From assembly GCA_000404785.1 (NCBI GenBank), contig ASNI01000007.1, forward strand, positions 181 to 64,180: DNA of 64,000 nt. Direction: 5' to 3'. The stretch is from Cloacimonetes bacterium SCGC AAA252-N17 (GTDB lineage: Bacteria > Cloacimonadota > Cloacimonadia > JGIOTU-2). The position numbers were made by a program, and so were the translations under genes. Below, piece by piece: positions 2,584 to 51,354 of the stretch (position 1 is its first letter; the number at the start of each line of letters is the position of its first letter). Below the pieces are notes generated by a model, which worked only from the letters and a program-made list of their open reading frames with translations, was not told the DNA's origin and made no database searches.

Positions 2584-2628
2584 TGTTTTCTCCTATAATT
2601 TTTTTGTTTTTGTTAATATAATTATTCT

Positions 2629-2745
2629 ATCCCGATGCATCTACATCTCGTTAGACAGGTCGGGATGTCTGCCTATCAATGACATTAACTATCTTATGCC
2701 CTACGAACCATAGTGGTCGGGGCTCCTATCTTTGACATTTTAGAT
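2629..2745. repeat. Two intergenic hairpin modules, each followed by CCTATC(AA/TT)TGACATT
   Basis: ATCCCGA (2629-2635) pairs with TCGGGAT (2660-2666). A second imperfect hairpin is GCCCTACGAACCATAGTGGTCGGGGC (2698-2723). Each is followed by CCTATCAATGACATT or CCTATCTTTGACATT, which contain TTGACA-like boxes. Confidence 0.6.
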
Positions 2746-2835
2746 AACATTTCGCCTTTTTTAATTTATATTTTCTCTCTAATTTTAAATTCTTCAAAGG
2801 GTATTGCTTTTTAATCTTTCCTCCTTTTTTGTTTT

Positions 2836-3663
2836 TTATTTTTTTTTGGTCTGAGCTTTCCATGATTTAACATCCATAGATTGCTGCCAGAAAAAATCGA
2901 ATAAGGCAATAAATGCATCAACAATAGTCTGTTGCTTGATGAGCACCATCCTGAGTTCATTGGAAATATTTAACGGGACTGCATCAGCAATCAACAATGT
3001 TTTATTATCAAATACGAACATTTTGAGTGGAAGGATACTCGAGATTCTGCATTGTTCACCGGCTTTACGATCTCTTTCCATGAGAGAAATTGTAACATAA
3101 TCTTCAATACTCTTTATTTCATAAATAGTTTTTAAGACACCTTTACGTTTTAAAAATGCATTTTGTACATCTCCCTGCATTTTTTGTTCTTCGGAAGTTG
3201 AAGCAGCCCAGGGAGGTTTTGTGAATGACAATATTTCGTTTTTGGCATTTCCTGTTAACTCGCAGAATTTTTGATGTATATTATCGTTTCCATGAAAAAC
3301 TTCTATGTATTCAAAAGGTTCTTTGATATCGTCAGAACTATTGTATATTTCTTCCATTTCATTGATTAGTTTATAACTTTCAGCCAAATTATTTTCCATG
3401 TTTTTCAAAGAGCGACTAAATGAAGATTTTGGGCTGGCAATATTAAAATATTTTCTGTTACCTATTTTTTTTTCTGAGCAATAGCCTTCGCGTAAAAGGT
3501 AATTAACAACCTCGCTTACCTTGTTATGCGGAACTCCGGAGATTTTTTGCAGGTCAGATAAAGATGCATCCTTTTTTTCTAATAACGCTGAATAAACTTT
3601 AGCCTGCCGTTCACTAAAACCTAAATTTTTCAGGTTATTTACAAACTTATTATTTCCTTTCAT
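2836..3663 (-). CDS. TrmB-family HTH transcriptional regulator
   Basis: The N-terminus LGFSERQAKVYSALLEKKDASLSDLQKISGVPHNKVSEVVNYLLREGY matches the TrmB winged-helix pattern. The 275-aa length is typical of the family. Confidence 0.75.
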   Translation of the reverse strand: MKGNNKFVNNLKNLGFSERQAKVYSALLEKKDASLSDLQKISGVPHNKVSEVVNYLLREGYCSEKKIGNRKYFNIASPKSSFSRSLKNMENNLAESYKLINEMEEIYNSSDDIKEPFEYIEVFHGNDNIHQKFCELTGNAKNEILSFTKPPWAASTSEEQKMQGDVQNAFLKRKGVLKTIYEIKSIEDYVTISLMERDRKAGEQCRISSILPLKMFVFDNKTLLIADAVPLNISNELRMVLIKQQTIVDAFIALFDFFWQQSMDVKSWKAQTKKK

Positions 3664-3909
3664 TTTATACCGCCATCACTATGGGGGGACATTTATTTGA
3701 GAATGAAAAAACTGTCAAGCTTTTTCTTTTTTTTGAAAAAAAGTTATCTATTTTTTAGGTTTCAATATAGTTAACTGGCACAATAGTGGTAAGTTAAAAA
3801 CAAAATATTGTAATGAGAATTTATAAAAAAAATTAAATTTTTTTGAATGTAAATGTTTGTCAATTTTGCAGGAGCATTTTCGGGATTTATTTTAGTGATA
3901 TTTTTTTCG

Positions 3910-5358
3910 TTATACGGTATGTTTTTGATTAAAAACAAAGGTTCCGTTTTTGAGAATTCGGACTGCATTTTCAACAACATTCGGATCATATAAAATACCT
4001 TTGTTGTCCTCTATTTCTTCAATGGCGATCTCCAATCCAAGACTTTGACGATAGGGTCTATCATTCACCATTGCTTCTACAACGTCTGCTACTGCAAGTA
4101 TTCGGGCTTCCATAAGGATATCATCATTCTTCAGTCCATTTGGATAACCGCTACCATCAAACCGCTCATGATGCTGAAGCACCATTTTGGCAACCTGCCA
4201 CGGAAAATCAAGATCCTTCAGTAGGTTATAACCTACTTTCGGGTGTAATTTAATCTGTTCCCACTCTTTATCTGTAAGCATTTCCGATTTATTCAATATC
4301 CTGATCGACACCTTGATCTTACCAATATCATGTACGATTCCGCCTATACGAATATCTTCGATCATATCGGATGGAAATTTCATTTCCTCTGCAATGGCAA
4401 TCCCAAGTTGAGCCACATTATGCTGATGACCTGCTGTGTAGGGATCCCGCAATTCAACAACATTGGCGAGCACGTTGACAGTATCCTCGATAAGTTTCTG
4501 CAATCTCTCAGAACTTGCCTTAAGCTCATCTTCAGCCCGTTTTCTGTCGGTGATATCTCGATAAATACCATACACTGCTACCTGCTGTCCTTCTATGATG
4601 ATAGGCGTGCCGAGAATCGATACATCCAGCAATTTACCACTTTTGGTTCTACGCTTTGTTTCAAGCTGTATATCTTTGCCATTAGCAACTTGCTTAGTGC
4701 ATTCAGTAGCTTCGTTCAAAAGATCATCAGCAGCAATGAGTTCATCGATACCTTTTCCAATTGCTTCTTCCAAAGTATAGCCAAACATATCAGTGAATGC
4801 ATTATTAACCTGTAGTACTTTCCCATCATTCAAGGTAACTACTACTGCTTCCGGTGAACTCTCAAAAAGGCGTTCGAAATATGCCTTCTGCTCCTGAAGC
4901 GCTTCGTCAGATTTCTTGCGATCCTCTTCCTTCCTTTCTATCTCCCGTTGAAGTAAAATGCCATTGCCCAGTTCTTGGATCATGTCCATAAGCCGATTCA
5001 CATCAACCGGTTTGAGAATAAAACCGTGCACACCAAGTTCTATTGCCCGTATAAAATAGTTAATTTCTCCATAAGCTGTCACTACGATGAATTTTGTAGC
5101 AGGTTCAATTTCCTTGATCTTCTCGATCATTTCCAGCCCGTTCATGATGGGCATTCTTATATCTGTTATAACGATTTGGGGCTTATGCTTCTTAAATATA
5201 TCGAATCCCATTTTCCCATCAGTCGCAGTGTACACATCTCTAATCTTACGTTCCAGCATTGTATTAACTGAACGGAGTATGACACCTTCATCCTCAACAT
5301 ACATAATTGATAAAGGTAAAAGAGCTTTTGGTGTTTCTTTAATTGGTTGTGATTTCAA
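3910..5358 (-). CDS. Response regulator with REC, PAS and HD-GYP (c-di-GMP phosphodiesterase-type) domains
   Basis: The REC domain shows VEDEGVIL...ITDIRMP...VVTAY. A PAS segment follows. HD-GYP motifs are HDIGKIKV and HHERFDGSGYPNGL. The start is a TTG at 5358. Confidence 0.9.
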   Translation of the reverse strand: MKSQPIKETPKALLPLSIMYVEDEGVILRSVNTMLERKIRDVYTATDGKMGFDIFKKHKPQIVITDIRMPIMNGLEMIEKIKEIEPATKFIVVTAYGEINYFIRAIELGVHGFILKPVDVNRLMDMIQELGNGILLQREIERKEEDRKKSDEALQEQKAYFERLFESSPEAVVVTLNDGKVLQVNNAFTDMFGYTLEEAIGKGIDELIAADDLLNEATECTKQVANGKDIQLETKRRTKSGKLLDVSILGTPIIIEGQQVAVYGIYRDITDRKRAEDELKASSERLQKLIEDTVNVLANVVELRDPYTAGHQHNVAQLGIAIAEEMKFPSDMIEDIRIGGIVHDIGKIKVSIRILNKSEMLTDKEWEQIKLHPKVGYNLLKDLDFPWQVAKMVLQHHERFDGSGYPNGLKNDDILMEARILAVADVVEAMVNDRPYRQSLGLEIAIEEIEDNKGILYDPNVVENAVRILKNGTFVFNQKHTV

Positions 5359-5614
5359 TGGTAAACGCTGCTCCTTTTTTGGTATTCTGCACGGTAAGTG
5401 AACCTTTCATATTCTTTTCAATGAGCATTTTTGACATATATAGACCTAATCCTGTTCCGACTAAACTTTCTTTCTTTAAAAAGTAAGGTTCGAATATTTT
5501 GTCAATCAATTTATCAACCTTCAGCAGACTGGAGTTCAGGCATTTTTGACGGGACTTCAGAATGCTAACAGTTGTCGTCTCAAGTCCAGTTTCAGCATAC
5601 TGGAGTTCAGGCAT
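5339..5614 (-). pseudogene. Remnant of a histidine kinase (only the last ~55 aa of the HATPase_c domain are kinase-like)
   Basis: The C-terminal half, KIFEPYFLKKESLVGTGLGLYMSKMLIEKNMKGSLTVQNTKKGAAFTIEI, is a G1/G2-box ATP-lid region. The N-terminal half is translated from the 71-bp tandem repeat. No H-box or N-box is present. The remnant overlaps the REC-HD-GYP start like a former HK-RR operon junction. Confidence 0.6.
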
Positions 5615-8963: not shown

Positions 8964-11078
8964 CTACTCAACAATTTCTTTCGGTATTTCCAGTGTAAAA
9001 CTCGTGCCATTTTTTCTGTCTAATGATAATGTTCCCTGTAGCTGCTTAGTAATCATATCAACAATTGATAAGCCAAGAGTCTCCGGATCATTTATGTCTA
9101 TATTTTCCGGCATTCCGATCCCATCATCAGAAATTTTTATTACAACATGTTTCTCTGTCTCTTTTAATTCAATATGAATGTTCCCCACTTCTCTTCCTTC
9201 AAAAGCATATTTTATGGAATTTGTTATGATCTCATTCAATACCAGTCCCAGTCTATCTAATATCTCAATATTGATCGTGAGTTCATCGAGAGAATAGCTG
9301 ATCTTTACTTTATGATGTATATCATAATTGTATTTAAGCTGCTCTGCAAGTGATTCAATATATTTCCCAACACTCACTTCTGACATATACTCCGAACCTA
9401 ATAATAATTCATAAGCTTTTGCCATTGCAAGTATTCTATCCTGGCTTGCAGCAAATCCCTTTATCGCATCTTCTTTTGTTGTTATTTCGTTCTGCTGAAG
9501 CTGAAGAAGGCTTGATATTACCTGCAAATTATTCTTCACCCTGTGATGTATTTCACGCAATAATAATTCTTTTTCTTTCAGATCTCTCTTCATCTGTTCT
9601 TCCGCCTGTTTACGATTGATGGCAAGAGCAATTTCTTCTGAAATAAAGGTAAGAATTTTAATATCTTTCTCTGTATAAAGATTGGGATCATCATAGCTTT
9701 GAACTGCAATTACACCAATTACTTTGTTTTCAACTTTTAGAGGAACACCGAGCCAGATTTCGGAAGGAGTTCCAATGATGTCAATTTTGCCCTGTTTGGT
9801 TAATTTATCTTGTAATTGTTTATTTGCAAATAATGGTTTACCTGTTTTTATGACTAGAGAAGTGAGAGTTTTGCCAGCTGGGAAAGTTTCAAAATCATCT
9901 TTTTCATCAACATCAAAAGGAAGAGAGATATAATCGGTTTTCTCATCATATAAAGCAACATAGAAATTGGTAGTGTCGATCACATTTCCCAGGTATTCTC
10001 TTATTTTGCTGTAAAAGTCGCGCATTTTATCGGTTGTATTCAGAGCATTGGAAATGTTGTATAAGACTTTTTGTGTTTCCTCTGCCTGCTTGCGCTCGGT
10101 GATATCAAAAGATATACCGATAACACCAATGATTTTCCCCTCAGCATCAACAAATGGAATTTTACTTGTACTGACCCATTTTGAACCGATCTCAGTTTTC
10201 CAGGGTTCTTTAATATTTAATTGTGCTTTACCGCTTTTAATTACTTTTAGATCATCTTCAAAATATGCTTTTGCATCTTTTCCGGGATATAATTCGTAAC
10301 AGCTTTTATTTTTCATTTCTGCTTTTGTCAGCTTGTGCGCATCTGCTACGTATTTGTTCACGGTTATATAGTTATTTTTCTTGTCTTTATAAAAAATCAA
10401 TCCGGGAATATGATCTAATATTGCTTCGAACTGGTTAGACAAATTTTTATATTGTTCTTCACTTTCCATTATTACTTCTTCTGCCTGCTTGCGCTCTGTG
10501 ATATCGTTTACAAGCAAGACTGCACCTGCAAATTTATCATTTTCAAATATGGGAACGCCTTTTAGAGTTACATAAGTTTCTTTTCCATAAACAGAAATGA
10601 AAAGCCCCTCATTTGCAATTTCCTTATCCTCCAAAAGATTATTGAAGATAGATGAAAGCTCAGCATTTTTTATTGAAGAAAGTTCCCTTATATCCATTCC
10701 CGTAGCTTTTGATTTTTCGCCAGGAGGAACTCCCAAAATCCTTTTCATTTCAGGATTTTCGTAACTTATTATGAGTTTCGCATCCAGCCTTATTATTCCT
10801 GCTGGAGAATTTTCTACAATCCCTTCATTTAACTTATATAGTTGTTTATAGGATTCTTCGGATTCTGATAATTGTTTGGTTCTGTCTACCACCATTTCTT
10901 CAAGGTTTTCAGAGTATTCTTTCAGTTTCTTCTCTGATTTCTTAAGCAGAATGTCCTTCAACTTTAACCTGATAATAAAGTATATGGTTGTTAAAATAAA
11001 AAGTCCAAGAAAAATAGATGATATTATGACGAATATTTGTATCTGATTTTCCGTATACATACTATACTTCCAAGCCAA
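8964..11078 (-). CDS. Sensor histidine kinase (TM, 2 PAS, GAF, HisKA_2, HATPase_c)
   Basis: An N-terminal TM helix is followed by PAS units ending NDITERKQAEE and FDITERKQAEE. The GAF region reads WLGVPLKVENKVIGVIAVQSYDD. The H-box is EIHHRVKNNLQVISSLL, and a C-terminal ATPase domain follows. The true start may be the internal Met (MYTENQ). Confidence 0.9.
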   Translation of the reverse strand: MAWKYSMYTENQIQIFVIISSIFLGLFILTTIYFIIRLKLKDILLKKSEKKLKEYSENLEEMVVDRTKQLSESEESYKQLYKLNEGIVENSPAGIIRLDAKLIISYENPEMKRILGVPPGEKSKATGMDIRELSSIKNAELSSIFNNLLEDKEIANEGLFISVYGKETYVTLKGVPIFENDKFAGAVLLVNDITERKQAEEVIMESEEQYKNLSNQFEAILDHIPGLIFYKDKKNNYITVNKYVADAHKLTKAEMKNKSCYELYPGKDAKAYFEDDLKVIKSGKAQLNIKEPWKTEIGSKWVSTSKIPFVDAEGKIIGVIGISFDITERKQAEETQKVLYNISNALNTTDKMRDFYSKIREYLGNVIDTTNFYVALYDEKTDYISLPFDVDEKDDFETFPAGKTLTSLVIKTGKPLFANKQLQDKLTKQGKIDIIGTPSEIWLGVPLKVENKVIGVIAVQSYDDPNLYTEKDIKILTFISEEIALAINRKQAEEQMKRDLKEKELLLREIHHRVKNNLQVISSLLQLQQNEITTKEDAIKGFAASQDRILAMAKAYELLLGSEYMSEVSVGKYIESLAEQLKYNYDIHHKVKISYSLDELTINIEILDRLGLVLNEIITNSIKYAFEGREVGNIHIELKETEKHVVIKISDDGIGMPENIDINDPETLGLSIVDMITKQLQGTLSLDRKNGTSFTLEIPKEIVE

Positions 11079-11665
11079 TAAATAAGGCCAATTAAAGTTG
11101 AATTTTGGGCAAAAACCCAGTTCTTCAAAGGTCCAAATGCCACAATATTGCTGGCTAGAATATGTAAGCCAAAATACAAAACAAAGCCAGAAAAAATAAA
11201 GAATGTTTCAATGTTTTCAATGAATGGTTTTTTTAATAGCAAATACCTCAAAATTAAAGTAGAGCCAATCATAAGAATTATTGAGTTGAAAAAATCAACC
11301 GTGTTTACTGGTTGATAACTTCCATATTTTAGTGATAAGATAGCACTCAGAATAGTTGGCAGGGCAGGAATTACAATAGCAAATCGTGCATAATTCCACC
11401 CTGCCAATTTAAAGAGAATGGTTATAACAAGATATAGTTCATAGATACTGATGATAGCCCAGAAAAAAAGATAGACTGTTCCAGAACGCTCACTGACAAT
11501 CATAAGAATATTCCAGAGGGTAAAAACAGCAAGATAATAAACAAAATATTTAACAGTTTCTTTATTTAATCCCGTGAGACCGCTCTTTTTGTAAATACAG
11601 AGCCAAAGGAGTAAATTTAGAGCACGGAATATTGGCAGGTTATATGAAATAATGGGATCTATCAT
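11024..11665 (-). CDS. Seven-TM membrane protein of unknown function (possible detached sensor module of the downstream kinase)
   Basis: I count seven hydrophobic helices in 213 aa. The ATG start is at 11665. The 3' end overlaps the kinase ORF by 55 nt, or 35 nt if the internal Met is used. Confidence 0.6.
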   Translation of the reverse strand: MIDPIISYNLPIFRALNLLLWLCIYKKSGLTGLNKETVKYFVYYLAVFTLWNILMIVSERSGTVYLFFWAIISIYELYLVITILFKLAGWNYARFAIVIPALPTILSAILSLKYGSYQPVNTVDFFNSIILMIGSTLILRYLLLKKPFIENIETFFIFSGFVLYFGLHILASNIVAFGPLKNWVFAQNSTLIGLIYWLGSIVCIRKIRYKYSS

Positions 11666-11689
11666 AATCTCGGACTAATCTTTTATTTC

Positions 11690-11986
11690 TTAGCTTCCCC
11701 ATGGTTTTAAGGGTTTTGGTTTAATATCGCCTTGCATACTACACAGAGCATTCATTTCGTTTTCATCCTGGTTTGGAGTATACGGTGCTATCTCTGTTTG
11801 AACTAATGGTTTTGGCATAATGTCACCTTGTGCAATACATTCAGCATTTGCATTACTGAATTTAACTGTTAAGGCTGAGTTCATCGTATACTTTGGTATA
11901 ACACACCACATACTTATTAATGATAACAATAAAACAATTGCTATCATCACCAATGCATACTTTTTTGAGTCAATTTTCTGTTTCAT
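11690..11986 (-). CDS. Small secreted or membrane-anchored protein with a duplicated C-x2-QGDI-x-PKPL motif
   Basis: A strong SD (AGGAG) sits upstream of the ATG at 11986. An N-terminal anchor reads YALVMIAIVLLLSLISMWCVI. The two repeats are NAECIAQGDIMPKPL and NALCSMQGDIKPKPL. The gene ends 24 nt upstream of the 7-TM gene. Confidence 0.55.
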   Translation of the reverse strand: MKQKIDSKKYALVMIAIVLLLSLISMWCVIPKYTMNSALTVKFSNANAECIAQGDIMPKPLVQTEIAPYTPNQDENEMNALCSMQGDIKPKPLKPWGS

Positions 11987-12548
11987 TTTTCTCCTATGTT
12001 GTTTTTAGTTTTTTGGGTTAACATAATAATTCTTTACCTAATTTTGACATTAACATTTTTAGTCCCTCATCATTACTTGTGTTTTATCATAATTTTCGTA
12101 AGGTAATAAGACTTGACTAAGAATTTCCAATATATCATTATCATAATTAACTATTAAGATAGATTTCATAACAAAATTCCTATAGAATTATTTATTTATG
12201 AATTTTACATACATACATGAATTATATTATATATATCTTTTTATATTTTGGGGCATAGTTTGTCAAGTATTTCCAAGATTGTTCATGCATACTCCTGATT
12301 TTTTTCAAAATTATGAAAATTTCAGAGAGTGGAATACGGAGAAAAGAAAATGGAGAATGGAAAATTTTGAAACTCGAAACTTGAAAATCGAAACTGGAGT
12401 AGTGAACTTGTGAATTGTGGAATTAGCAAACTGATTAATTGGTGAATATGTTAATTGGTAAACGAATTCTTGATTTTCACCCAAGTAGAGTTTAGAAAAA
12501 TCATGTTGTCTTACTATAAAAGAATTTACACAAATGTGTAATATTAAA

Positions 12549-12797
12549 TTACTCAAGTTTCGCAGGAGTGTAGATCACTTAACAGATCATATTTTATATT
12601 TTTGAAATATTTCATAACACCTTGATTTTTATATAGTTACATATAAGTACAAGATTAGTGATTTAAGCTGCATTTTCATGGTTTATAAGATCATTTTGCA
12701 TTATATCCGTAGACACGAAAAAGCGAAATATTAAGAGTATTTATGCTACATTTTTCTCATTGATAAAGCAGATTTATCTCCTGCGAAACTTGAGTAA
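12549..12797. repeat. Perfect 20-bp inverted repeats enclosing a 209-bp AT-rich segment
   Basis: TTACTCAAGTTTCGCAGGAG (12549-12568) is the exact reverse complement of CTCCTGCGAAACTTGAGTAA (12778-12797). The element lies in a ~1-kb gene-free gap upstream of the DUF1015 gene. Confidence 0.85.
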
Positions 12798-13010
12798 ATA
12801 ATATGAACGTATGCAAAAAATACAGCACCAATTAGTAGTATTTCATTCTTTTTGACACATCGGAGATCTGTTTAAGAACCTTGCGAATGCTTGACGAATA
12901 AAACCTTCGCAATGGTTCGAATATTGGCGTCTCTGCTAAAATAATTGACAGGATAATCACGCATAAACACTTAATGCTATACAAATAATCAATAGTAATG
13001 AGGATAATTT

Positions 13011-42489: not shown

Positions 42490-43242
42490 TTATTGTATTC
42501 CAAGTAACTTGAAAATTCCAAATAATTTCAGGCAGGCAACTATCACCGCAATTGTTATCACTACCTTAACAAAACCTGCACCTTTTTTTACTGCGGTTCG
42601 GACACCGATAAATGCTCCGAGTATATTTCCGGCAGCAAGCAGCAAACCATAATGCCACATGATCTTATCCGAGACAGCAAATACGATCACTACAAAAAAT
42701 GTATAACACATCACAATGAAAACTTTCACTGCGTTTGCACGTATGAGATTAAAATCCTCAACAAGATTAAGTGTGGCAAGAAATATAAATCCTATTCCTG
42801 TCTGGATGAATCCACCATACAGCCCAACACAGAAAAATATGAGCACTTCAAGCCACTTCGGGATACTTTTTCTCTCCGCCGATGCCTTTCTCTTTGGCTT
42901 GAAGATAAGCACCAAAATAAGTATAAGTGCTACTCCGAGCACTTTATCAAAGACCTGTGAACTGATATCTACAGCGAATAAAGAGCCAACTATTGCTCCA
43001 ATAATCGCTGCGATAGTTATATGAATGACCGGCTTGACTTCGAGCTCTTTATACTTCTTGAACCTCGCTGTTGCGACGATATTCTGAAGAAGAATTGCGA
43101 CACGATTCGTCGCATTTGCAATTGGTGAAGGCAATCCCAATAATATGAGAACAGGGAGCGTCAATGTTGAGCCACCACCTGCAAGCGTGTTCATAAAACC
43201 GGCTGCCACACCGGCAAGAAAAAGTATTATATAAAGTAGCAT
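42490..43242 (-). CDS. TauE/SafE (TSUP) family anion exporter
   Basis: The 250-aa polytopic protein shows the duplicated 4-TM pattern and GGG-rich helix 1 (LAGGGSTLTLPVL). Confidence 0.85.
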   Translation of the reverse strand: MLLYIILFLAGVAAGFMNTLAGGGSTLTLPVLILLGLPSPIANATNRVAILLQNIVATARFKKYKELEVKPVIHITIAAIIGAIVGSLFAVDISSQVFDKVLGVALILILVLIFKPKRKASAERKSIPKWLEVLIFFCVGLYGGFIQTGIGFIFLATLNLVEDFNLIRANAVKVFIVMCYTFFVVIVFAVSDKIMWHYGLLLAAGNILGAFIGVRTAVKKGAGFVKVVITIAVIVACLKLFGIFKLLGIQ

Positions 43243-43263
43243 AATTTTTTTACTCTACTATTT

Positions 43264-43329
43264 ACCACAGAGATCACAGAGGACACACGGCTACTCCGCC
43301 AGCTGGCGGATACGCCGTGGCAGGCAGAG
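43264..43329. repeat. Composite repeat: 9-bp-period CACAGAG array, CCGCCAGCTGGCGG palindrome and GCCGTGGCAGGCAGAG block
   Basis: The sequence reads ACCACAGAGATCACAGAGGACACACGG CTACTCCGCCAGCTGGCGGATACGCCGTGGCAGGCAGAG. Every block recurs elsewhere in the window. Confidence 0.8.
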
Positions 43330-43408
43330 ATTTAACAATAACTATTTTTAGATGTTTTTCTAACACAATAGTATTTTTTCATAGTCTTCTTACTATGGTC
43401 AAGAATTT

Positions 43409-43487
43409 CTTACTGTTTACAATTCCGCAGGTGCATAGAGATATCTAATGGACGCCTTTTATAAAATATTTGACAAACAAATTGTCT
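43409..43487 (+). promoter_or_regulatory. ~75-bp upstream element with TTGACA box (copy 1, upstream of the racemase gene)
   Basis: CTTACTG..TTCCGCAGGTGCATAGAGATAT.TAATGGACGCCTTTTATAAAATATTTGACAA is ~80% identical to 44558-44634. Confidence 0.6.
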
Positions 43488-43567
43488 ATTGTTCTATCGC
43501 ATAAAATTATTCTTTATGATTTTGGATATCATAATTGATGCTTCAGCTTTAACCGTATACATTCTCG

Positions 43568-44554
43568 ATGAACCTGAACCCAACGGGATTATTGAAATTA
43601 CTACAGGAAATACTCTCATTTGACCTGGCTGCTGCTCTGCTATGTTCAAACCGAATTGGTTTGATTTACAAAAAATTCGTAAGAAAGGATGTTACCATAA
43701 AATTAAAAATAACCTCTATTACACTGATCCTTACGTTTATAATAGCTTCAATGAGCGGATGTGCTTCCACACAGAGTACGATCCTACAAAAGGAAAACCT
43801 TCGTGATGAAGCCCTGCGAGACGAGGAAACCCCAAAAGACAAGCAAATCAAGACGATTGGCATCATAGGGGGAGTAAGTTGGGTATCTTCCATTGAATAT
43901 TATCGTCTTATGAACGAAATGGTGCGTGACGAGTTGGGGGGATTGCACTCCGCTGAAATATTGATGTTTTCCATTGAATTCGGTGAATTCTCCAAACAGG
44001 AGCGTATGGCAGATCAAGGTGACTGGAAACCTCTGATCGAGACATTGCTCGATGCAGCTCAACGGCTGAAACAAGGAGGTGCGGATTTCATCGTTATCGC
44101 ATCCAATACCTTAAATTCTCAAGCAGAGATTATCGAAGAAACCGTCGGCATTCCCGTTATTCATATTGCCGATGCCACAGGTGAAAAAGTAAAAGAAAAG
44201 GGAGTGCACACTGTTGCATTGCTAGGCACAAAATACACAATGGAGCAGCCCTTTTATCGGGAGCATTTGGAAAATTACGGACTCAAGGTCGTTACCCCAA
44301 ACGAAAGCGAACGGGAGTATATTAACACGGTGATCTTCGACGAGTTGTGTGCCGGTATGATAAAAGATGAGTCCAGGATAGAATTCATGCGAATTATAGA
44401 ACGCCTTGCAGAGGAAGAAGGCGCTGAAGGTGCGATCCTCGGCTGTACGGAGATTCCGCTGCTCGTCAAACAAACGGATGTGGACATACCAATCTTCGAT
44501 ACGACTGCCATTCATTCAGAAGCTGCAGTTAGATTTTCCATTGGCGGAAAGTGA
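43568..44554 (+). CDS. YgeA/RacX-type (PLP-independent) amino-acid racemase with a lipoprotein-like signal peptide
   Basis: The core reads KTIGIIGGVSWVSSIEYYRLMNE...IVIASNTLNS...ILGCTEIPLL. It is preceded by KLKITSITLILTFIIASMSGC, a lipobox-like sequence. The real start may be the in-frame TTG at 43661. Confidence 0.8.
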   Translation: MNLNPTGLLKLLQEILSFDLAAALLCSNRIGLIYKKFVRKDVTIKLKITSITLILTFIIASMSGCASTQSTILQKENLRDEALRDEETPKDKQIKTIGIIGGVSWVSSIEYYRLMNEMVRDELGGLHSAEILMFSIEFGEFSKQERMADQGDWKPLIETLLDAAQRLKQGGADFIVIASNTLNSQAEIIEETVGIPVIHIADATGEKVKEKGVHTVALLGTKYTMEQPFYREHLENYGLKVVTPNESEREYINTVIFDELCAGMIKDESRIEFMRIIERLAEEEGAEGAILGCTEIPLLVKQTDVDIPIFDTTAIHSEAAVRFSIGGK

Positions 44555-44557
44555 TAC

Positions 44558-44634
44558 CTTGCTTACTGCTTGCGTTTTCGCAGGTGCATAAAGATATGTG
44601 ATGTACGCTTTTTATAAATTAATTGACAATATTT
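44558..44634 (+). promoter_or_regulatory. ~75-bp upstream element with TTGACA box (copy 2, upstream of the PHP-ATPase gene)
   Basis: The sequence reads CTTACTG..TTTCGCAGGTGCATAAAGATATGTGATGTACGCTTTTTATAAATTAATTGACAA. Confidence 0.6.
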
Positions 44635-44819
44635 TTATGAAATAATAACTACCAACTTAGTGAGTTTAAGTAAATTAAAAACTACGTCGGGGTGTATGTT
44701 ATGAAGAATGGATATAAGGATGTTATCACGCCAGTTGGCGTGTTAATCCCTAGTTAGGCGACTATAAAAAATATAAATGAAACAGTCTATATTCAACTGC
44801 TCATAAGAAGGAGAAAAAA

Positions 44820-47720
44820 ATGTCATATGATAATTATCTCAGAGGCTTAGTATGGCGAAAATGGGATTTGCATGTACATACTCCTGCTTCTTTTCACTGG
44901 AATGGAGGTAAGAAGTTTTCTTCAATGTCTAAAGTTGAAAAGGATGATTCATTAAAAGTAATGTATGATACAATAGAACAAAGTGATATAGCTGTTTTTT
45001 GTATTATGGATTATTGGACTTTTGATGGGTATTTTGAATTGATGAAATATGTTCATAGTAATTCTCTAAAACTTTCAAAGACTGTTTTACCTGGCATGGA
45101 ATTAATAATTGAAGCTCCTGTGGACTATCGCTTAAATATACATGTGATTCTATCAAACGAATTATCGAATCAACAATTAGTCGATTTTAAATCAAAAATA
45201 ACTATAAGGAGCATTGAACGACAAATTTCAGATGAAGCTTTAATGGATTTTGCAAAAAGTTTGGATGATAGTAAATCTAAAATCCATGGTTTTAATAAAA
45301 TTAAAGATTTAACCAATGATCAACTATTAGAACTGGGTTCTTGTACTGCAGAAATAACAAAATCGTCTTTGCACGATGCAATTAATTCTGTACCAAAAGG
45401 ATCTTGTTATATAATTATGCCTTACGATACTTCAGATGGTTTAAAAAAACTAGATTGGGAAACTCAACCTCATGCTGACAATTATTTCATGCAAAGTTCA
45501 CATATTTTTGAATCACGTGATGAAGAAACTATAGATTTGTTCCTAGGTAAAACAACAGATAAAAATAGAAATTTTATTCAAAATTTTTTGAAGACAATAG
45601 GATCTACAAAAAAACCAGTAATTTGTGGCAGTGATACACATAAATTTTCTGATTATGGTAATTTCCCGAGCAATAAAATTACATGGATTAAAGCAAATCC
45701 AACATTTGAAGGATTAAAACAAATTATATATGAACCAGAAGAAAGAGTCCAAATTCAAAGTCATTCACCTAAAAATATAACACATTATCTTATAATTGAT
45801 AAAGTTAGATTTCTAGATAAAACTTCAAAAAATCTTTTCCCAAATTTTTGGATTCATTTAAATCCTAATTTAAATGTTATCATTGGTGGTAAATCATCGG
45901 GTAAATCAATTTTACTTCGTCATATAGCCAAAGCAATTGCCCCAGAATCAGTAGAAGGTCGCTTAAAGGAGATTGAGCTTGATGACTATGATTTTGGAGA
46001 ACCAGATATATTTGATTTTGAAGTATGTTGGCATGATGGTTTTTCAAATAAAATTTCTGAAAATATAGATAGAAAAACAAGAGAAATCACATACCTACCA
46101 CAAATGTATATAAATTTCCTAGCCGAAAGAAAAGGTGAAAAAAATCTAAAAAACCTTATCAATTCTATTCTAAAACAAAATGATAATTTTAAATCATTTA
46201 TTGATGTTGTTGATGAAGAAATAAATGAGCTTGAAGAACAAATAAATATTTCTATTACTGAGCTACTTTCTTTACGCCAAAGAGTATCCGATTTATACCA
46301 ATCCAGAAAAGAAATTGGTGACGAACGAGCTATTAAAATAGAACTAAAACGATTGGAAGAGCATATTGATAAACTTAGAAAAGAATCTGGATTCAGTGAA
46401 AAAGAAAATATTGAATATGAAAAACTAATATTTCAATTCAACTATCACGAAAAGAAAAAAACAGATTATTCTCATTTATATCAAACATTTGATGATTTTA
46501 AACAAGAATTAGATGTAACCAATTCTTCATGTATTCAACAAATTGATTCAAAATTAGATGGATTTTCATACAACAATTTAGCACATAGACATCTTAGCTA
46601 TATAATTAGTTTTTTACATGAAGAAATAAGTCGTGTTTTTGATAATGCAAATCAAAAATGGCAAGAAAAAAGGAATAAAATTGAAGACAAAATTAAAAGA
46701 CATCAAGAAACAATATCTTCGCTCGACAAAGAACTTGAACCGTTTAAACAAAAAATAAAAAATAGAGGACTACTAAAACGACTAGATGAACAACTCATAT
46801 TGCAAAAAAGCAAGCTCCATAAAATTAAATTGTTAAATGAAGACATTAAAAATGTTACATCTAAAGGGAAGAAAACACGAGATAATTTATTTGATAGTTA
46901 TACAAAATTATTGAATTGTTATAAAAGAATAGATTCTGAACTTAAAAAAACTGAATATAGTAAGATCGACGATGAAATATTGTTAAAATCTCAAGTGTCT
47001 TTTAATATATCTCAATTTTCAAATTCATTTAGTAATCTTTTTGATCGACGAGGTAATTTTTCAACTATCTTTGGTGACTTTTTTGATTCAAAGAACGATT
47101 ATATTTTCGATTCCCAAAATCATATTCAAAATATACTAACAATTTTTGATAAATTATCCAACTTAGAAAAATCGGGATTGAAGTTTAAAACAAATGTAAC
47201 GCCAAATGAAGCTTTCTTGAAATTATTTGACAATTGTTTTGACTTGAAATATACAATTGAGTTCAAAGGTGATGATATATTGAAAATGTCTCCTGGTAAA
47301 AAGGGTTTAGTATTGTTACAATTGATTTTACATATTAGTAATGCAAGTCATCCAATCCTTATTGATCAGCCTGAAGATAACTTAGATAATCGGACAATAT
47401 TTAACGAGTTAAAAAGATTTATTAAAAAAAGAAAAACACTGCGACAAGTAATATTAGTAACCCATAATGCAAACTTAGTTGTTGCAACAGACACTGAAAA
47501 TGTTATTGTATGTAATCAATCAGGTGAGCAAATCGGTAATGATAATAAGCAATTTAAATTTGAATATGTTAATGGGGCATTAGAATATACTTTTACTGAC
47601 GATTCACAAGAAGGAATATTATATAAATTTGGAATTCGAGAACATGTTTGTGAGATATTAGAAGGTGGAAAAGAGGCATTTCTCCAAAGAGAACTTAAAT
47701 ATGGATTTACTAATAGATGA
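44820..47720 (+). CDS. PHP-domain phosphoesterase fused to a coiled-coil-interrupted ABC/SMC-type ATPase (Ppl-like candidate defence protein)
   Basis: An AAGGAG SD precedes the ATG. The PHP motifs are DLHVH, GMELIIEA, LNIHVI and ICGSDTH. Walker A is GGKSSGKS. A long K/E/L-rich middle region follows, then MSPGKKG, Walker B PILIDQPEDNLD and VTHNANL. Confidence 0.85.
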   Translation: MSYDNYLRGLVWRKWDLHVHTPASFHWNGGKKFSSMSKVEKDDSLKVMYDTIEQSDIAVFCIMDYWTFDGYFELMKYVHSNSLKLSKTVLPGMELIIEAPVDYRLNIHVILSNELSNQQLVDFKSKITIRSIERQISDEALMDFAKSLDDSKSKIHGFNKIKDLTNDQLLELGSCTAEITKSSLHDAINSVPKGSCYIIMPYDTSDGLKKLDWETQPHADNYFMQSSHIFESRDEETIDLFLGKTTDKNRNFIQNFLKTIGSTKKPVICGSDTHKFSDYGNFPSNKITWIKANPTFEGLKQIIYEPEERVQIQSHSPKNITHYLIIDKVRFLDKTSKNLFPNFWIHLNPNLNVIIGGKSSGKSILLRHIAKAIAPESVEGRLKEIELDDYDFGEPDIFDFEVCWHDGFSNKISENIDRKTREITYLPQMYINFLAERKGEKNLKNLINSILKQNDNFKSFIDVVDEEINELEEQINISITELLSLRQRVSDLYQSRKEIGDERAIKIELKRLEEHIDKLRKESGFSEKENIEYEKLIFQFNYHEKKKTDYSHLYQTFDDFKQELDVTNSSCIQQIDSKLDGFSYNNLAHRHLSYIISFLHEEISRVFDNANQKWQEKRNKIEDKIKRHQETISSLDKELEPFKQKIKNRGLLKRLDEQLILQKSKLHKIKLLNEDIKNVTSKGKKTRDNLFDSYTKLLNCYKRIDSELKKTEYSKIDDEILLKSQVSFNISQFSNSFSNLFDRRGNFSTIFGDFFDSKNDYIFDSQNHIQNILTIFDKLSNLEKSGLKFKTNVTPNEAFLKLFDNCFDLKYTIEFKGDDILKMSPGKKGLVLLQLILHISNASHPILIDQPEDNLDNRTIFNELKRFIKKRKTLRQVILVTHNANLVVATDTENVIVCNQSGEQIGNDNKQFKFEYVNGALEYTFTDDSQEGILYKFGIREHVCEILEGGKEAFLQRELKYGFTNR

Positions 47721-47897
47721 ACGTCGCCTAACAAAGCATGAATCCGACGATAGATAATTCGTGCATGAAGGCAAAAGAACAAATTAAAGCAACGTCCATA
47801 ATGGCGCGGGTTATGCAATTCCGTTATACATCCTATGACACACAATTATCTGTAAACTCATTTATATATAACTTCCATTTCAAATCTTCTCATATTT

Positions 47898-47925
47898 CTC
47901 TGTGTTCTCTGTGCTCTCTGTGGTG
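47898..47925. repeat. 9-bp-period CTCTGTG array (3 units)
   Basis: The sequence CTCTGTGTT CTCTGTGCT CTCTGTGGTG is inverted relative to the array at 43264-43290. Confidence 0.85.
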
Positions 47926-47971
47926 ATATTTTTTCTGAATTCACTGTTTTCATATCCTTGTAATATAGAAG

Positions 47972-49306
47972 TTAGTTCATCGCGCGCACATACAGATTGG
48001 GCATGATCCTGCACCCGGTAACACTGGCGATCACATTTGACGTACCTGCGCGAGTATAAAGCCCGTGAAAATGCCCGTTATAGACGAACAGTCCAGTAAT
48101 ATATTTATAATCTTTCAGGACTGGTTTTTCATTTTTGAAAGTAATACAGGGAAGTGTCGGAGGTTCGATAAACTGCTGAACGAGATAGGAATCCTTTTCT
48201 TGTATCGAGTCGATCGTCCGTTCCCATTCTTCCTGATTATGATCCACACCGACAAATACACCTTTTGCCGCATACCTGTCCATGGGTTTGAGAATATATT
48301 CTTCCTTTGAAGTACGTGCTCTATTCTCGGCATCGGGATCGGATAACTCTTTTGTGAAAGGAATATGCCTTTCGACGAACTTCTGCTCTTCAGAATTGAG
48401 AAAAGTTGTCTTCGTTGTATCACGCAGAATTGAAAAAATCCTTTTATTATGGATTATATGAGACCGGAATGGACCAACCATGCAGACATTTCCATCTTTA
48501 TATGCTGCAAGTAAATCTTTCACTTCATCAGCACGCTCGCAAATCTCAAAAGTCAGTGAGCGCCGATAAATGAGATCGATAGGAATATCTATGTAATACA
48601 ACTTATTCTGCTTATACTTCAGGTCACGGGGATCGCAAATAACAGTTCTATACCCTCTTTGCATAAGCATCTGCTGGAAAACCTTGAACTCCTCGATCGT
48701 TGCGACACCATCCCAATCCATGATCGCAATGTTCGGGTTTGTATGGGGAGTGTTTTTAAATTCGGCATAACAGGAGAGCAGTTCTTCGATCCATGGGAGG
48801 AAAAGCTCAAAATAGCTGATACGGTATTTTTTCTGGAGCACTTTCAGTATCTGTGAGGACAACACTGCTTTCTCAACAGGATTGGATTCGTTCATACCGG
48901 AGGTGCCGTCTGTGTTCAGCTCACAAAATTTAAAATCGTCATCATAGGAATAGAAAATATCAAAACGTGCCATGGGAAAGGGCATTGCGTAGCCGGGATC
49001 AATAAGAATAAGCTCCTCTATTAAAGAGGGAAAATCAAAGTACGAACGGAATACTGGATTTCTTACATATTCATCTATCACTTTTTTGAGAATGTAGGAA
49101 AAGGTTGTGACGAGATGCTCGAACCTGTTTATATCAGCCTGATCAAAAAACATCGGCTGGTAATGAAAATCAATCGGCTTGCCTTTATACAGCGCGGTGG
49201 AATTGGCAACTGCATTCTCCACAAGCGTGAAATCCTCATAATATTTTTTTGGATGTTCTAAAATTTCTTTGGAACATTCTTTGTAAATCGGTAAGATTGA
49301 ATTCAT
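47972..49306 (-). CDS. ATP-grasp ligase of the glutathionylspermidine-synthase-like / GshB-like type
   Basis: The 444-aa product contains strings I associate with the pre-ATP-grasp GSP-synthetase family (FCELNTDGTSGMNE, LKPMDRYAAKGV). It lies directly downstream of gshA. Confidence 0.65.
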   Translation of the reverse strand: MNSILPIYKECSKEILEHPKKYYEDFTLVENAVANSTALYKGKPIDFHYQPMFFDQADINRFEHLVTTFSYILKKVIDEYVRNPVFRSYFDFPSLIEELILIDPGYAMPFPMARFDIFYSYDDDFKFCELNTDGTSGMNESNPVEKAVLSSQILKVLQKKYRISYFELFLPWIEELLSCYAEFKNTPHTNPNIAIMDWDGVATIEEFKVFQQMLMQRGYRTVICDPRDLKYKQNKLYYIDIPIDLIYRRSLTFEICERADEVKDLLAAYKDGNVCMVGPFRSHIIHNKRIFSILRDTTKTTFLNSEEQKFVERHIPFTKELSDPDAENRARTSKEEYILKPMDRYAAKGVFVGVDHNQEEWERTIDSIQEKDSYLVQQFIEPPTLPCITFKNEKPVLKDYKYITGLFVYNGHFHGLYTRAGTSNVIASVTGCRIMPNLYVRAMN

Positions 49307-50692: not shown

Positions 50693-51354
50693 TCTATACC
50701 CAGCATACGAATAATAAAAGCATAACGCTCTGCGATGTCCTCATATTGTATGTATCTTCCGGAGCCACCATAATGTCCAGCCATATTCGTTTTTAGTATG
50801 AGCACATTATCATCTGTTTTCATATCACGCACTTATGCCATCCATCGAAGGGGTTGCCATTAGCGTACCCGGCTGTCATGATATCCTGCTGTGAGCATCA
50901 TATTGGGATATGCCTGCCCTCTGATGTTCCGATAGGTATCCCACGAAAGCAGGTAATTGAAGTATTCTCTTTTATAGGGTTTTCCCTGCTCTCTTCTGGA
51001 GTAGTAATAGTAATCTCCCCAGCGAGTCGGTGCATTGACATCCTCTTCTCCGATCCTGCTTATGATTTCATGAAAAATTGTATCTTTGAGCGTTGCCATT
51101 TCAGAAAATATCGCGTCTGCATAGGCGTTTTCTGCTTCGATATATTCTATTACAGTAGAATCGCTACGTGTGTCATCTATCATCCATGCATAATTATCTT
51201 TCAGTTCAATATTGTGTAGTGTTGCAGATGTTGGGATTTTTTTTGCAACTGGTGGTGCAATTTGGGAAGATACTGAATACTCATTCTGAATTTTTTGTGA
51301 CGCACAATACCCAAAAAGAAGAACTGCAAAAATAATAAAAATTACTCTTTTCAT
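50689..51354 (-). pseudogene. ptrB: Decayed tandem paralogue of oligopeptidase B (internal deletion plus two in-frame stops)
   Basis: The first ~128 aa align with the N-terminus of the intact upstream gene. The sequence then jumps to the extreme C-terminus (EYFNYLLSWDTYRNI vs DFDYMLSYCPYQNV). It reads on as VR*WQPLRWMA*VRDMK...GHYGGSGRY...YAFIIRMLGIE, against VNYWEPAKWIAKLRDKK...GHGGASGRF...YAFVFDILGIEF in the intact gene. Confidence 0.8.

Follow-up and report, generated by a model that had tools for sequence, protein, structure and literature searches.

Does the AT-rich gene at positions 44,820 to 47,720 of a 64,000-nucleotide stretch of Cloacimonetes bacterium SCGC AAA252-N17 DNA (contig ASNI01000007.1, positions 181 to 64,180) encode an immune nuclease, and if so, of which kind? 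The whole stretch is called the window below. An initial annotation, made from the sequence, had taken the gene for a stand-alone fusion of a PHP phosphoesterase and a coiled-coil ATPase of the ATP-binding cassette (ABC) type, and had proposed it as a candidate single-gene anti-phage system similar to Ppl. Ppl itself was reportedly found as a single-gene system in the Gao et al. 2020 defence screen. We consider it probable, at roughly 70%, that the window gene encodes a stand-alone, horizontally acquired Ppl-type immune nuclease of the TrlF family.

We confirmed the open reading frame (ORF), which starts with ATG and encodes 966 residues. The protein scored 525.3 bits (E 5e-157) on the NCBIfam model NF045780, 'TrlF family AAA-like ATPase', with residues 8-962 aligned to positions 1-944 of 944; the curated cutoff of this model is 350 bits. 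This match, over the full length and above the cutoff, places the window protein in the TrlF family. Its domain order is also that of the family, namely an N-terminal PHP domain with metal ligands followed by an ABC head that is split by a helical insert. The reference Ppl (WP_015059139.1, from the E. coli plasmid pHeBE7) scored 1330 bits on the Ppl-specific equivalog model NF042955, which has a curated cutoff of 1000 bits, and 477 bits, over its full length and above the cutoff, on NF045780. These two model scores suggest that Ppl forms a subclade within the TrlF family. An hhalign comparison of the family profile with E. coli Ppl gave a probability of 99.8% and an E-value of 2.4e-28 over 815 columns (10-963 against 2-887), and BLASTP matched the PHP domain plus Walker A (25% identity, E 2e-10) and the C-terminal head (32% identity, E 2e-15). 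The likeness to Ppl seen by the initial annotation holds as homology and architecture, but it does not extend to equivalence (79.9 bits on NF042955); on sequence grounds, the window protein is a divergent Ppl relative and not a Ppl equivalog. As for the profile searches that the annotation had suggested, the NCBIfam TrlF model is matched above its cutoff, while Pfam PHP is unmatched by the single sequence and the PADLOC Ppl model is matched only in part.

The motif scan found one motif set common to the window protein, Ppl, a plasmid-borne TrlF protein and a phage-borne copy. The motifs of Ppl and the window protein are W..[WF]D.H.HT, PGxEL, GSDxH, GxxxSGKS, SPGxKG, hhhDQPEDxLD and V[ST]H, and both proteins have an N-terminal PHP domain, an ABC head with a long helical insert and a C-terminal (L/M)EGGxxAF tail. 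Throughout the family, including Ppl, the Walker B motif reads DQPED, with Gln at the position of the usual catalytic Glu of ABC ATPases. This substitution suggests a slow-hydrolysing nucleotide sensor or clamp, and the sequence of the window protein suggests that its ATPase is mainly such a sensor or clamp rather than a motor.

The PHP, Walker A, signature, Walker B and VTHN motifs lie where the initial annotation had placed them, and their key residues are invariant in 51 homologues (Table 1). The PHP motifs are DLHVH (aa 16-20), PGMEL (aa 91-95) and GSDTH (aa 270-274), with LNIHVI also present, and the assigned metal ligands are D16, H18, H20, E94, H108, D272 and H274. D16, H18, H20, E94, D272 and H274 are invariant in the 51 aligned homologues, which go down to 37% identity. 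The same holds for the ATPase residues G356-S363, Q428, S824, G826, K827, D849-D853 and H882. The C-terminal lobe also contains the H-loop VTHN (aa 880-883) and a family-specific C-terminal LEGGKEAF. An AlphaFold2 model built on the 51-sequence alignment (mean predicted local distance difference test score 85.4) begins with a PHP-type alpha/beta domain; after it comes an ABC head in two lobes, between which an antiparallel coiled coil extends, its arms each about 125 residues long. The motif scan found no CxxC zinc hook in this coiled coil, and a hinge domain is likewise absent. Foldseek searches against the PDB matched the ATPase part to the heads of SMC, MukB, JetC, Rad50, RecN and LmuB (E 1e-8 to 1e-5), and model and search thus agree with the proposed architecture, in which a PHP domain is joined to an ABC head that a coiled coil divides. 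Matches in PHROGs and in a viral fold library were confined to generic ATPases or Rad50-like proteins.

The single window sequence had no Pfam PHP match, and only SMC_N appeared, below threshold. The PHP assignment stands because the motifs, the Foldseek matches to the PHP phosphoesterase 3o0f and to RNase AM 9etk (E about 1e-5), and the matches of the N-terminal domain profile alone to 7rty (8.8e-6) and 9etk agree with it, and because Pfam PHP matches 6 of 14 family members individually (5-6 of 14 for PHP or PHP_C). Sequence and model together indicate that the N-terminal domain is a divergent PHP domain of the TrpH/RNase-AM-like subtype. No solved structure of a family member turned up when the PDB was searched with the sequences of the window protein and Ppl, and no Ppl entry is present among the 50 Foldseek PDB matches listed, of 66 with E <= 0.001.

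The composition of the gene marks it as foreign. The TrlF ORF has 27.7% GC and 16% GC at third codon positions (GC3), in a window of 38.3% GC, and it is the lowest-GC 2.9-kb stretch in the 64-kb window, about 3.5 standard deviations below the mean. The flanking racemase and ATP-grasp genes have 43.8% and 40.9% GC, in line with the contrast that the initial annotation had noted by eye. A strongly foreign composition would also suit a decaying or silent acquired passenger without a current function in this host, as would the absence of a convincing sigma-70 promoter or intrinsic terminator around the gene in scans that cover the sigma-70 type only. We regard such a passenger as highly improbable. 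The frame is intact, all catalytic residues are present, a strong Shine-Dalgarno sequence precedes the ATG (as already seen in the annotation), and the locus is the same in two single-cell assemblies and in the contigs of many independent samples; the promoter scan, moreover, is blind to types other than sigma-70.

We compared the slot that holds the gene by tblastn of the window proteins against five other Cloacimonadota loci (L020-L024). The flanking genes are 77-93% identical in other Cloacimonadota species, and the slot between ATP-grasp and TauE differs (Table 1). Since the slot is empty in L020 and L024 and differently filled in L022 and L023, positions 43243-47971 are a variable segment at a small chromosomal hotspot, and the empty sites in related species bear out the earlier reading of a foreign insert. 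The gene is a foreign, horizontally acquired single-gene unit. In L022, a metagenome-assembled genome of Ca. Celaenobacter antarcticus, the ATP-grasp-proximal part of the slot (2387-5053) encodes a TIR-domain effector (Pfam PF10137; PADLOC TIR effector, 1.5e-45), beside which lie an XhoI-type restriction enzyme and an N6/N4 methyltransferase. This sister species keeps known defence genes in the hotspot that holds TrlF in the window. Beyond the restriction-modification block of L022 are an Ala-racemase/VanY fusion and then a DUF1611 protein. Between the two cargo blocks (5350-5415) is a 22-aa duplicate of the TauE N-terminus, suggesting a past insertion junction.

Within the host species, the arrangement TauE, racemase, TrlF, ATP-grasp, GCS2 is identical in the many-sample contigs and in the two NCBI single-cell assemblies. 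An empty site was not found among conspecific strains; it was found in other species. The annotation had stated that the gene lacks a same-strand partner. The upstream racemase gene does share its strand; what stands is that no partner is conserved, as each neighbour cluster is confined to 7 or fewer of 85 family loci and the largest clusters are recombinases. The racemase, too, is not a conserved partner. This Asp/Glu racemase gene (43568-44554, + strand) encodes a protein whose N-terminus is extended by about 95 residues that include a lipoprotein-like signal (…IASMSGCAS…); the gene is absent from the sister species like TrlF, but its GC content is host-like.

These data also bear on a housekeeping role in DNA repair, in which the protein would be a fused analogue of SbcCD/Mre11-Rad50 with a PHP domain replacing the Mre11 nuclease. 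The head and coiled-coil geometry is that of Rad50/SMC proteins, E. coli Ppl weakly matches Rad50 N-terminal lobes (about 1e-6), and PHP exonucleases proofread in PolX and Pol III; the PDB sequence search with the window protein itself returned no Rad50 match. Such a role is nevertheless very hard to reconcile with a gene that is absent from sister species with the empty site intact, that has the composition given above in a 38% GC genome, and that lacks a zinc hook. Copies are, in addition, common on plasmids and in recombinase-bounded islands, and over 85 loci we saw no conserved synteny of the housekeeping kind that the initial annotation had named as grounds for dropping its proposal.

The family is large and scattered. 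Clustered at 50% identity, it has 6,650 representatives with E <= 1e-3; with E <= 1e-30 there are 1,376, mostly full length. Its named members have a patchy taxonomy (Thorarchaeota, Dojkabacteria, Paenibacillus, Flavobacterium, Anaerolineae and Enterobacteriaceae), and the closest relatives of the window protein, at 64-67% identity, come from uncultured Ignavibacteriaceae-like and unassigned contigs. In 47 of 55 loci, the flanks are richer in GC than the family gene, whose median difference from them is -5.9 points (Wilcoxon p = 1e-8). Of the Pfam families in 131 immediate neighbours, the most frequent are ResIII, N6_N4_Mtase, Methylase_S, Eco57I, DEAD, RhuM, DNA_methylase and MmeI, and further common ones are AAA_23/15/21, Schlafen-AlbA_2, resolvase and rve. 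PADLOC assigned components of Type I, II and III restriction-modification systems, DrmMI, mad3 and PDC-S05 to family neighbours.

Among single loci, one has a helicase/SNF2/MmeI-methylase (DISARM-like) cluster, and another is an island with an integrase, in which a DUF433/DUF5615 pair and a giant Eco57I-helicase protein are encoded. Three serine recombinases accompany the Paenibacillus gene, WYL/RtcB/TatD genes the Flavobacterium gene, and an Abi protein and an HNH nuclease a plasmid copy. In locus L005 (1827-7361), the TrlF homologue P0016 lies in an element with three consecutive tyrosine recombinases; gene fragments of an MFS transporter at both ends of L005 suggest that the element was inserted into the MFS gene. 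The genome paper for Spaf_1101 places that gene at the edge of a Tn5252-like element. The family is clearly, if qualitatively, associated with defence islands and mobile elements, and the neighbourhood and phyletic check proposed by the annotation came out in its favour, with defence-like neighbours and a patchy taxonomy. Small subsets of 4-5 loci each have common same-strand upstream neighbours, namely L038, L040, L070, L101 and L111 (rank -1/-2) and L041, L049, L072 and L074 (rank -1 and -2). Some subclades may therefore be embedded in restriction-modification-like operons, though no partner is fixed across the family.

We found a full-length copy on 168 plasmid records. A full-length TrlF-family gene (501 bits) also lies near a ParA-like gene on the 22-kb record of Microcystis phage Mwe-JY31 (PP438423.1; locus L031, 3404-6109), and this copy, on a phage or plasmid-like element, may be used in competition between elements. 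Might the family as a whole, then, be a weapon against other mobile genetic elements, such as conjugative or plasmid DNA, or serve plasmid persistence, in the manner of Wadjet or Lamassu? Conjugative plasmids account for 816 of the 1137 plasmid records that match the family, family genes adjoin partition and recombinase genes, JetC and LmuB are among the structures closest to the ATPase, and the 22-kb 'phage' record has its ParA-like gene. Ppl, however, the only family member tested, restricts phages T7 and Bas63 (PMC11482910). The chromosomal copies adjoin anti-phage genes of the restriction-modification, TIR and DISARM types, and plasmid carriage is typical of anti-phage systems too. We therefore think a role against other elements unlikely.

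How might a Ppl-type immune nuclease work in this host? The initial annotation had envisaged an ATPase sensor that licenses a PHP nuclease and had called the mechanism of this architecture uncharacterised. The logic it drew matches, by analogy, what is reported for Ppl; the second premise is out of date, because the Ppl mechanism was published in 2026, as summarised in PMC12904381 and PMC13434339. According to these summaries, which cite Xu et al. (Mol Cell 2026;86:180), Ppl is a single-stranded DNA (ssDNA) 3'-5' exonuclease that senses 3'-OH overhangs and is inhibited by nucleoside triphosphates (NTPs). NTPs on both the PHP and the NTPase domains are described as inhibiting it until the phage depletes the pools (PMC12904381, PMC13434339, bioRxiv 10.64898/2026.05.12.722862), and 3'-OH ends, for example from phage homing endonucleases, are reported to be required (PMC12904381). 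By analogy, NTPs would fill the ATPase site and the PHP site of the window protein in the uninfected cell and keep the nuclease off. During phage replication, NTP pools would fall and DNA with free 3'-OH single-stranded ends would appear. The window protein, which is probably a head-to-head dimer like other ABC/SMC ATPases, would bind these 3'-OH ends, and its PHP domain would then degrade the DNA exonucleolytically, so that the phage would be halted.

A different substrate can also be imagined. The PHP domain might act on RNA or on short 5'-phosphorylated oligonucleotides in the 5'-3' direction, like RNase AM/TrpH, and stop infection through transcripts or structured RNAs. The best structure and profile matches of the domain are indeed RNase AM-type (9etk and 7ug9) and 3o0f, and phage Bas63 counteracts Ppl with an anti-Ppl protein, gp130, that is similar to Ro60, an RNA-binding protein (PMC11482910). 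On the other hand, Ppl is reported, in the summary at PMC12904381, as an ssDNA 3'-5' exonuclease, and the ATPase half of the window protein resembles the DNA-binding heads of SMC and Rad50. We consider action on RNA to be quite unlikely.

Several points weigh against a Ppl-type immune nuclease. The window protein is known here from its sequence, genome context and predicted structure alone, and the Ppl mechanism comes from two secondary summaries (PMC12904381 and PMC13434339). Identity to Ppl is low (25% in the PHP domain and 32% in the C-terminal head). The match to NF042955 covers only the C-terminal region and stays below the equivalog cutoff, and the PADLOC Ppl model (PDLC02208) reaches 72 bits in two partial stretches; in a scan with PADLOC-DB v2 this weak and partial match is the sole family-specific one, and the other PADLOC matches of the window protein are all at the P-loop level. 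Between HxH and GSDxH, the PHP domain of the window protein exceeds its Ppl counterpart by about 56 residues, and the best structural matches of the window domain are 5'-3' exoribonucleases of the RNase AM type; substrate and polarity could therefore differ from those of Ppl. The enrichment of defence neighbours is qualitative, without a matched control set. Finally, the TrlF gene is fixed in all sampled strains of the host species and so gives no presence/absence signal within the species; this fixation does not contradict a defence role.

Table 1. Features of the TrlF gene and its surroundings (window positions unless another locus is named)
Feature	Nucleotides	Residues	Strand	Basis or remark
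TrlF-family gene	44820..47720	966 aa	+	ATG start; distant full-length Ppl homologue
Shine-Dalgarno AAGGAG	44808..44813		+	6 nt 5' of ATG; read from sequence
PHP phosphoesterase domain, TrpH/RNase AM-like subtype (predicted)	44841..45764	8-315	+	invariant columns, Foldseek, profile match
ABC head, N-terminal lobe (predicted)	45795..46175	326-452	+	Walker A GGKSSGKS (nt 45885-45908), Q-loop Q428
Antiparallel coiled coil (predicted)	46182..46943	455-708	+	apex near aa 581-585; DSSP on model
ABC head, C-terminal lobe (predicted)	46950..47708	711-963	+	signature, Walker B/D-loop, H-loop, C-terminal tail
Signature SPGKKG	47289-47306	824-829	+	motif scan
Walker B/D-loop ILIDQPEDNLD	47355-47387	846-856	+	motif scan
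Variable segment, racemase and TrlF	43243..47971			between conserved TauE and ATP-grasp; absent from sister species
Slot in L020				empty; ATP-grasp and TauE 200 bp apart
Slot in L022 (Ca. Celaenobacter antarcticus)				about 6.3 kb of other cargo
Slot in L023				RsgA-like GTPase gene
Slot in L024				empty; ATP-grasp and TauE 329 bp apart
10-bp inverted-repeat arm GTTAGGCGAC	44753..44762			upstream of TrlF
10-bp inverted-repeat arm GTCGCCTAAC	47723..47732			downstream of TrlF
REP-like repeat copies	22559, 43266(-), 47898, 47907, 49334, 49343, 54691(-), 54891, 54900
REP-like arm, TauE side	43264..43287			inverted pair with 47901..47924; 24 nt, 92% complementary
REP-like arm, ATP-grasp side	47901..47924			inverted pair with 43264..43287
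71-nt direct repeat, copy 1	43406..43476		+	upstream of racemase; ends TTGACAA
71-nt direct repeat, copy 2	44559..44629		+	about 190 nt 5' of TrlF ATG; 82% identical; ends TTGACAA

Three kinds of repeats surround the gene. The 10-bp inverted repeat that the initial annotation had described as bracketing the ORF is present in both arms, but the bracket is at chance level: an inverted repeat of at least 10 bp occurs in 208 of 2000 shuffles of the two intergenic flanks (about 10%) and in 9 of 118 arbitrary 2.9-kb spans of the window (about 8%). Because shuffles and arbitrary spans give equal or longer repeats, we judged it to be a chance occurrence and rejected it as a cassette boundary. Dispersed between the genes of the window is a REP-like repeat (CTCTGTGYTCTCTGTG type) with tandem CTCTGTGYT units, present in nine copies against 0.03 expected. 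Two of its arms form an inverted pair around the variable segment, and both are also found in the empty site of L020 (11343-11395 and 11487-11511), so they are resident sequences that flank exchanged cargo and not cassette termini. The 71-nt direct repeat has only two copies in the window and none in the sister species; it may be a scar of recombination or may serve both genes as a promoter region.

We found no tRNA gene in the 64-kb window and no Rfam match at 43200-48100. A 62-aa ORF (47738-47926, + strand), 18 nt past the TrlF stop, was considered as a small partner and rejected; it is probably spurious, because it reads through the REP-like repeat and because no gene is called at the equivalent position in the locus of P0002. 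Further downstream, a 164-aa ORF (50860-51354, - strand) is what an internal deletion has left of a second tandem S9 prolyl-oligopeptidase gene, which is intact (about 709 aa) in the sister species L020, L021 and L023. A second low-GC patch of the window (about 9300-13000, 27-32% GC) encodes PAS/GAF sensor histidine kinases, is unrelated, and had no defence signature; a stretch of about 1.3 kb in it (11690-13010) has small ORFs only.

Both the architecture and the family were known already, and the mechanism of the best-known member has been known since 2026. The annotation's view of the gene as the best candidate for a novel system in the window is not upheld; the family already has a curated NCBIfam model and a name. 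What is new is a divergent, environmental, chromosomal family member. If the window protein works as Ppl is reported to, sensing of NTP depletion and of DNA ends would extend from enterobacterial plasmids to an uncultured anaerobic-digester phylum, the Cloacimonadota, and to a very large, taxonomically scattered family. In full-text literature searches, we found no paper on a TrlF protein and no published function for the name. The Ppl-specific models miss this clade and the label 'TrlF' has no defence meaning, and the family is therefore probably under-counted in defence annotation. The locus also presents a small chromosomal hotspot between REP-like repeats in which sister species swap different defence cargo. 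It is tempting, but rather doubtful, to see in the bulk of the TrlF family outside Ppl (at least 1,376 clusters at 50% identity with E <= 1e-30) a large group of single-gene immune nucleases that has gone unrecognised and whose subclades differ from Ppl in trigger or substrate. The subclade of the window protein, with its enlarged RNase-AM-like PHP domain, could respond to a different end (RNA or 5') or a different nucleotide signal. We see the window gene as a credible but unsurprising defence gene, which does not overturn current understanding.

Among known systems, Rad50/SbcC, JetC of Wadjet and LmuB of Lamassu have an ABC head split by an antiparallel coiled coil, as in the window protein. 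Their nucleases are calcineurin-like (Mre11), Toprim (JetD) and Cap4 or other (LmuA), whereas the putative nuclease of the window protein is a PHP domain in cis. Compared with Rad50-Mre11, the window gene has no nuclease partner gene, its product has no CxxC hook, and it is absent from sister species. Compared with the Lamassu and Wadjet operons, it lacks kleisin, KITE or partner genes, and the likeness is limited to the head and the coiled coil (LmuB hidden Markov model, E 0.0026 in PADLOC).

RNase AM/TrpH (YciV) enzymes (9etk, 7ug9 and 3o0f) share the PHP fold, a helical insertion and the metal-ligand motifs with the window protein. They work alone as housekeeping enzymes, are about 290 aa long and attack RNA or oligonucleotide 5' ends; the window PHP domain, unlike them, is fused to an ABC ATPase, and its family occurs in mobile defence contexts. 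The regulatory logic proposed for the window protein is the same as that of NTP-gated nucleases. Gabija GajA, Septu PtuA, KELShedu and QatD are NTP-inhibited nucleases that are released by phage-induced depletion (PMC13434339, bioRxiv 10.64898/2026.05.12.722862). Their folds (Toprim, HNH, PD-(D/E)XK and TatD) differ from PHP, and Gabija and Septu are two-gene systems. The GajA model matches the window protein at E 3e-7 over aa 339-402 only, at the P-loop level, and the match to the PtuA head is also weak and local. In contrast to GajA/OLD proteins, the predicted nuclease is an N-terminal PHP domain, not a C-terminal Toprim domain, and there is no helicase (GajB) neighbour.

The closest comparisons are within the TrlF family. 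Ppl, with 891 aa against 966 aa, is found on enterobacterial IncF-type plasmids, whereas the window gene is chromosomal in Cloacimonadota; both genes stand alone, Ppl on pHeBE7 and the other in its slot. The plasmid member WP_069602499.1 (Enterobacter kobei pDSMZ13645) is 33% identical over 99% of the window protein, and the two proteins have identical GGKSSGKS and ILIDQPEDNLD strings. It, too, is encoded by a single gene amid variable cargo, while the subclade of the window protein is environmental and chromosomal.

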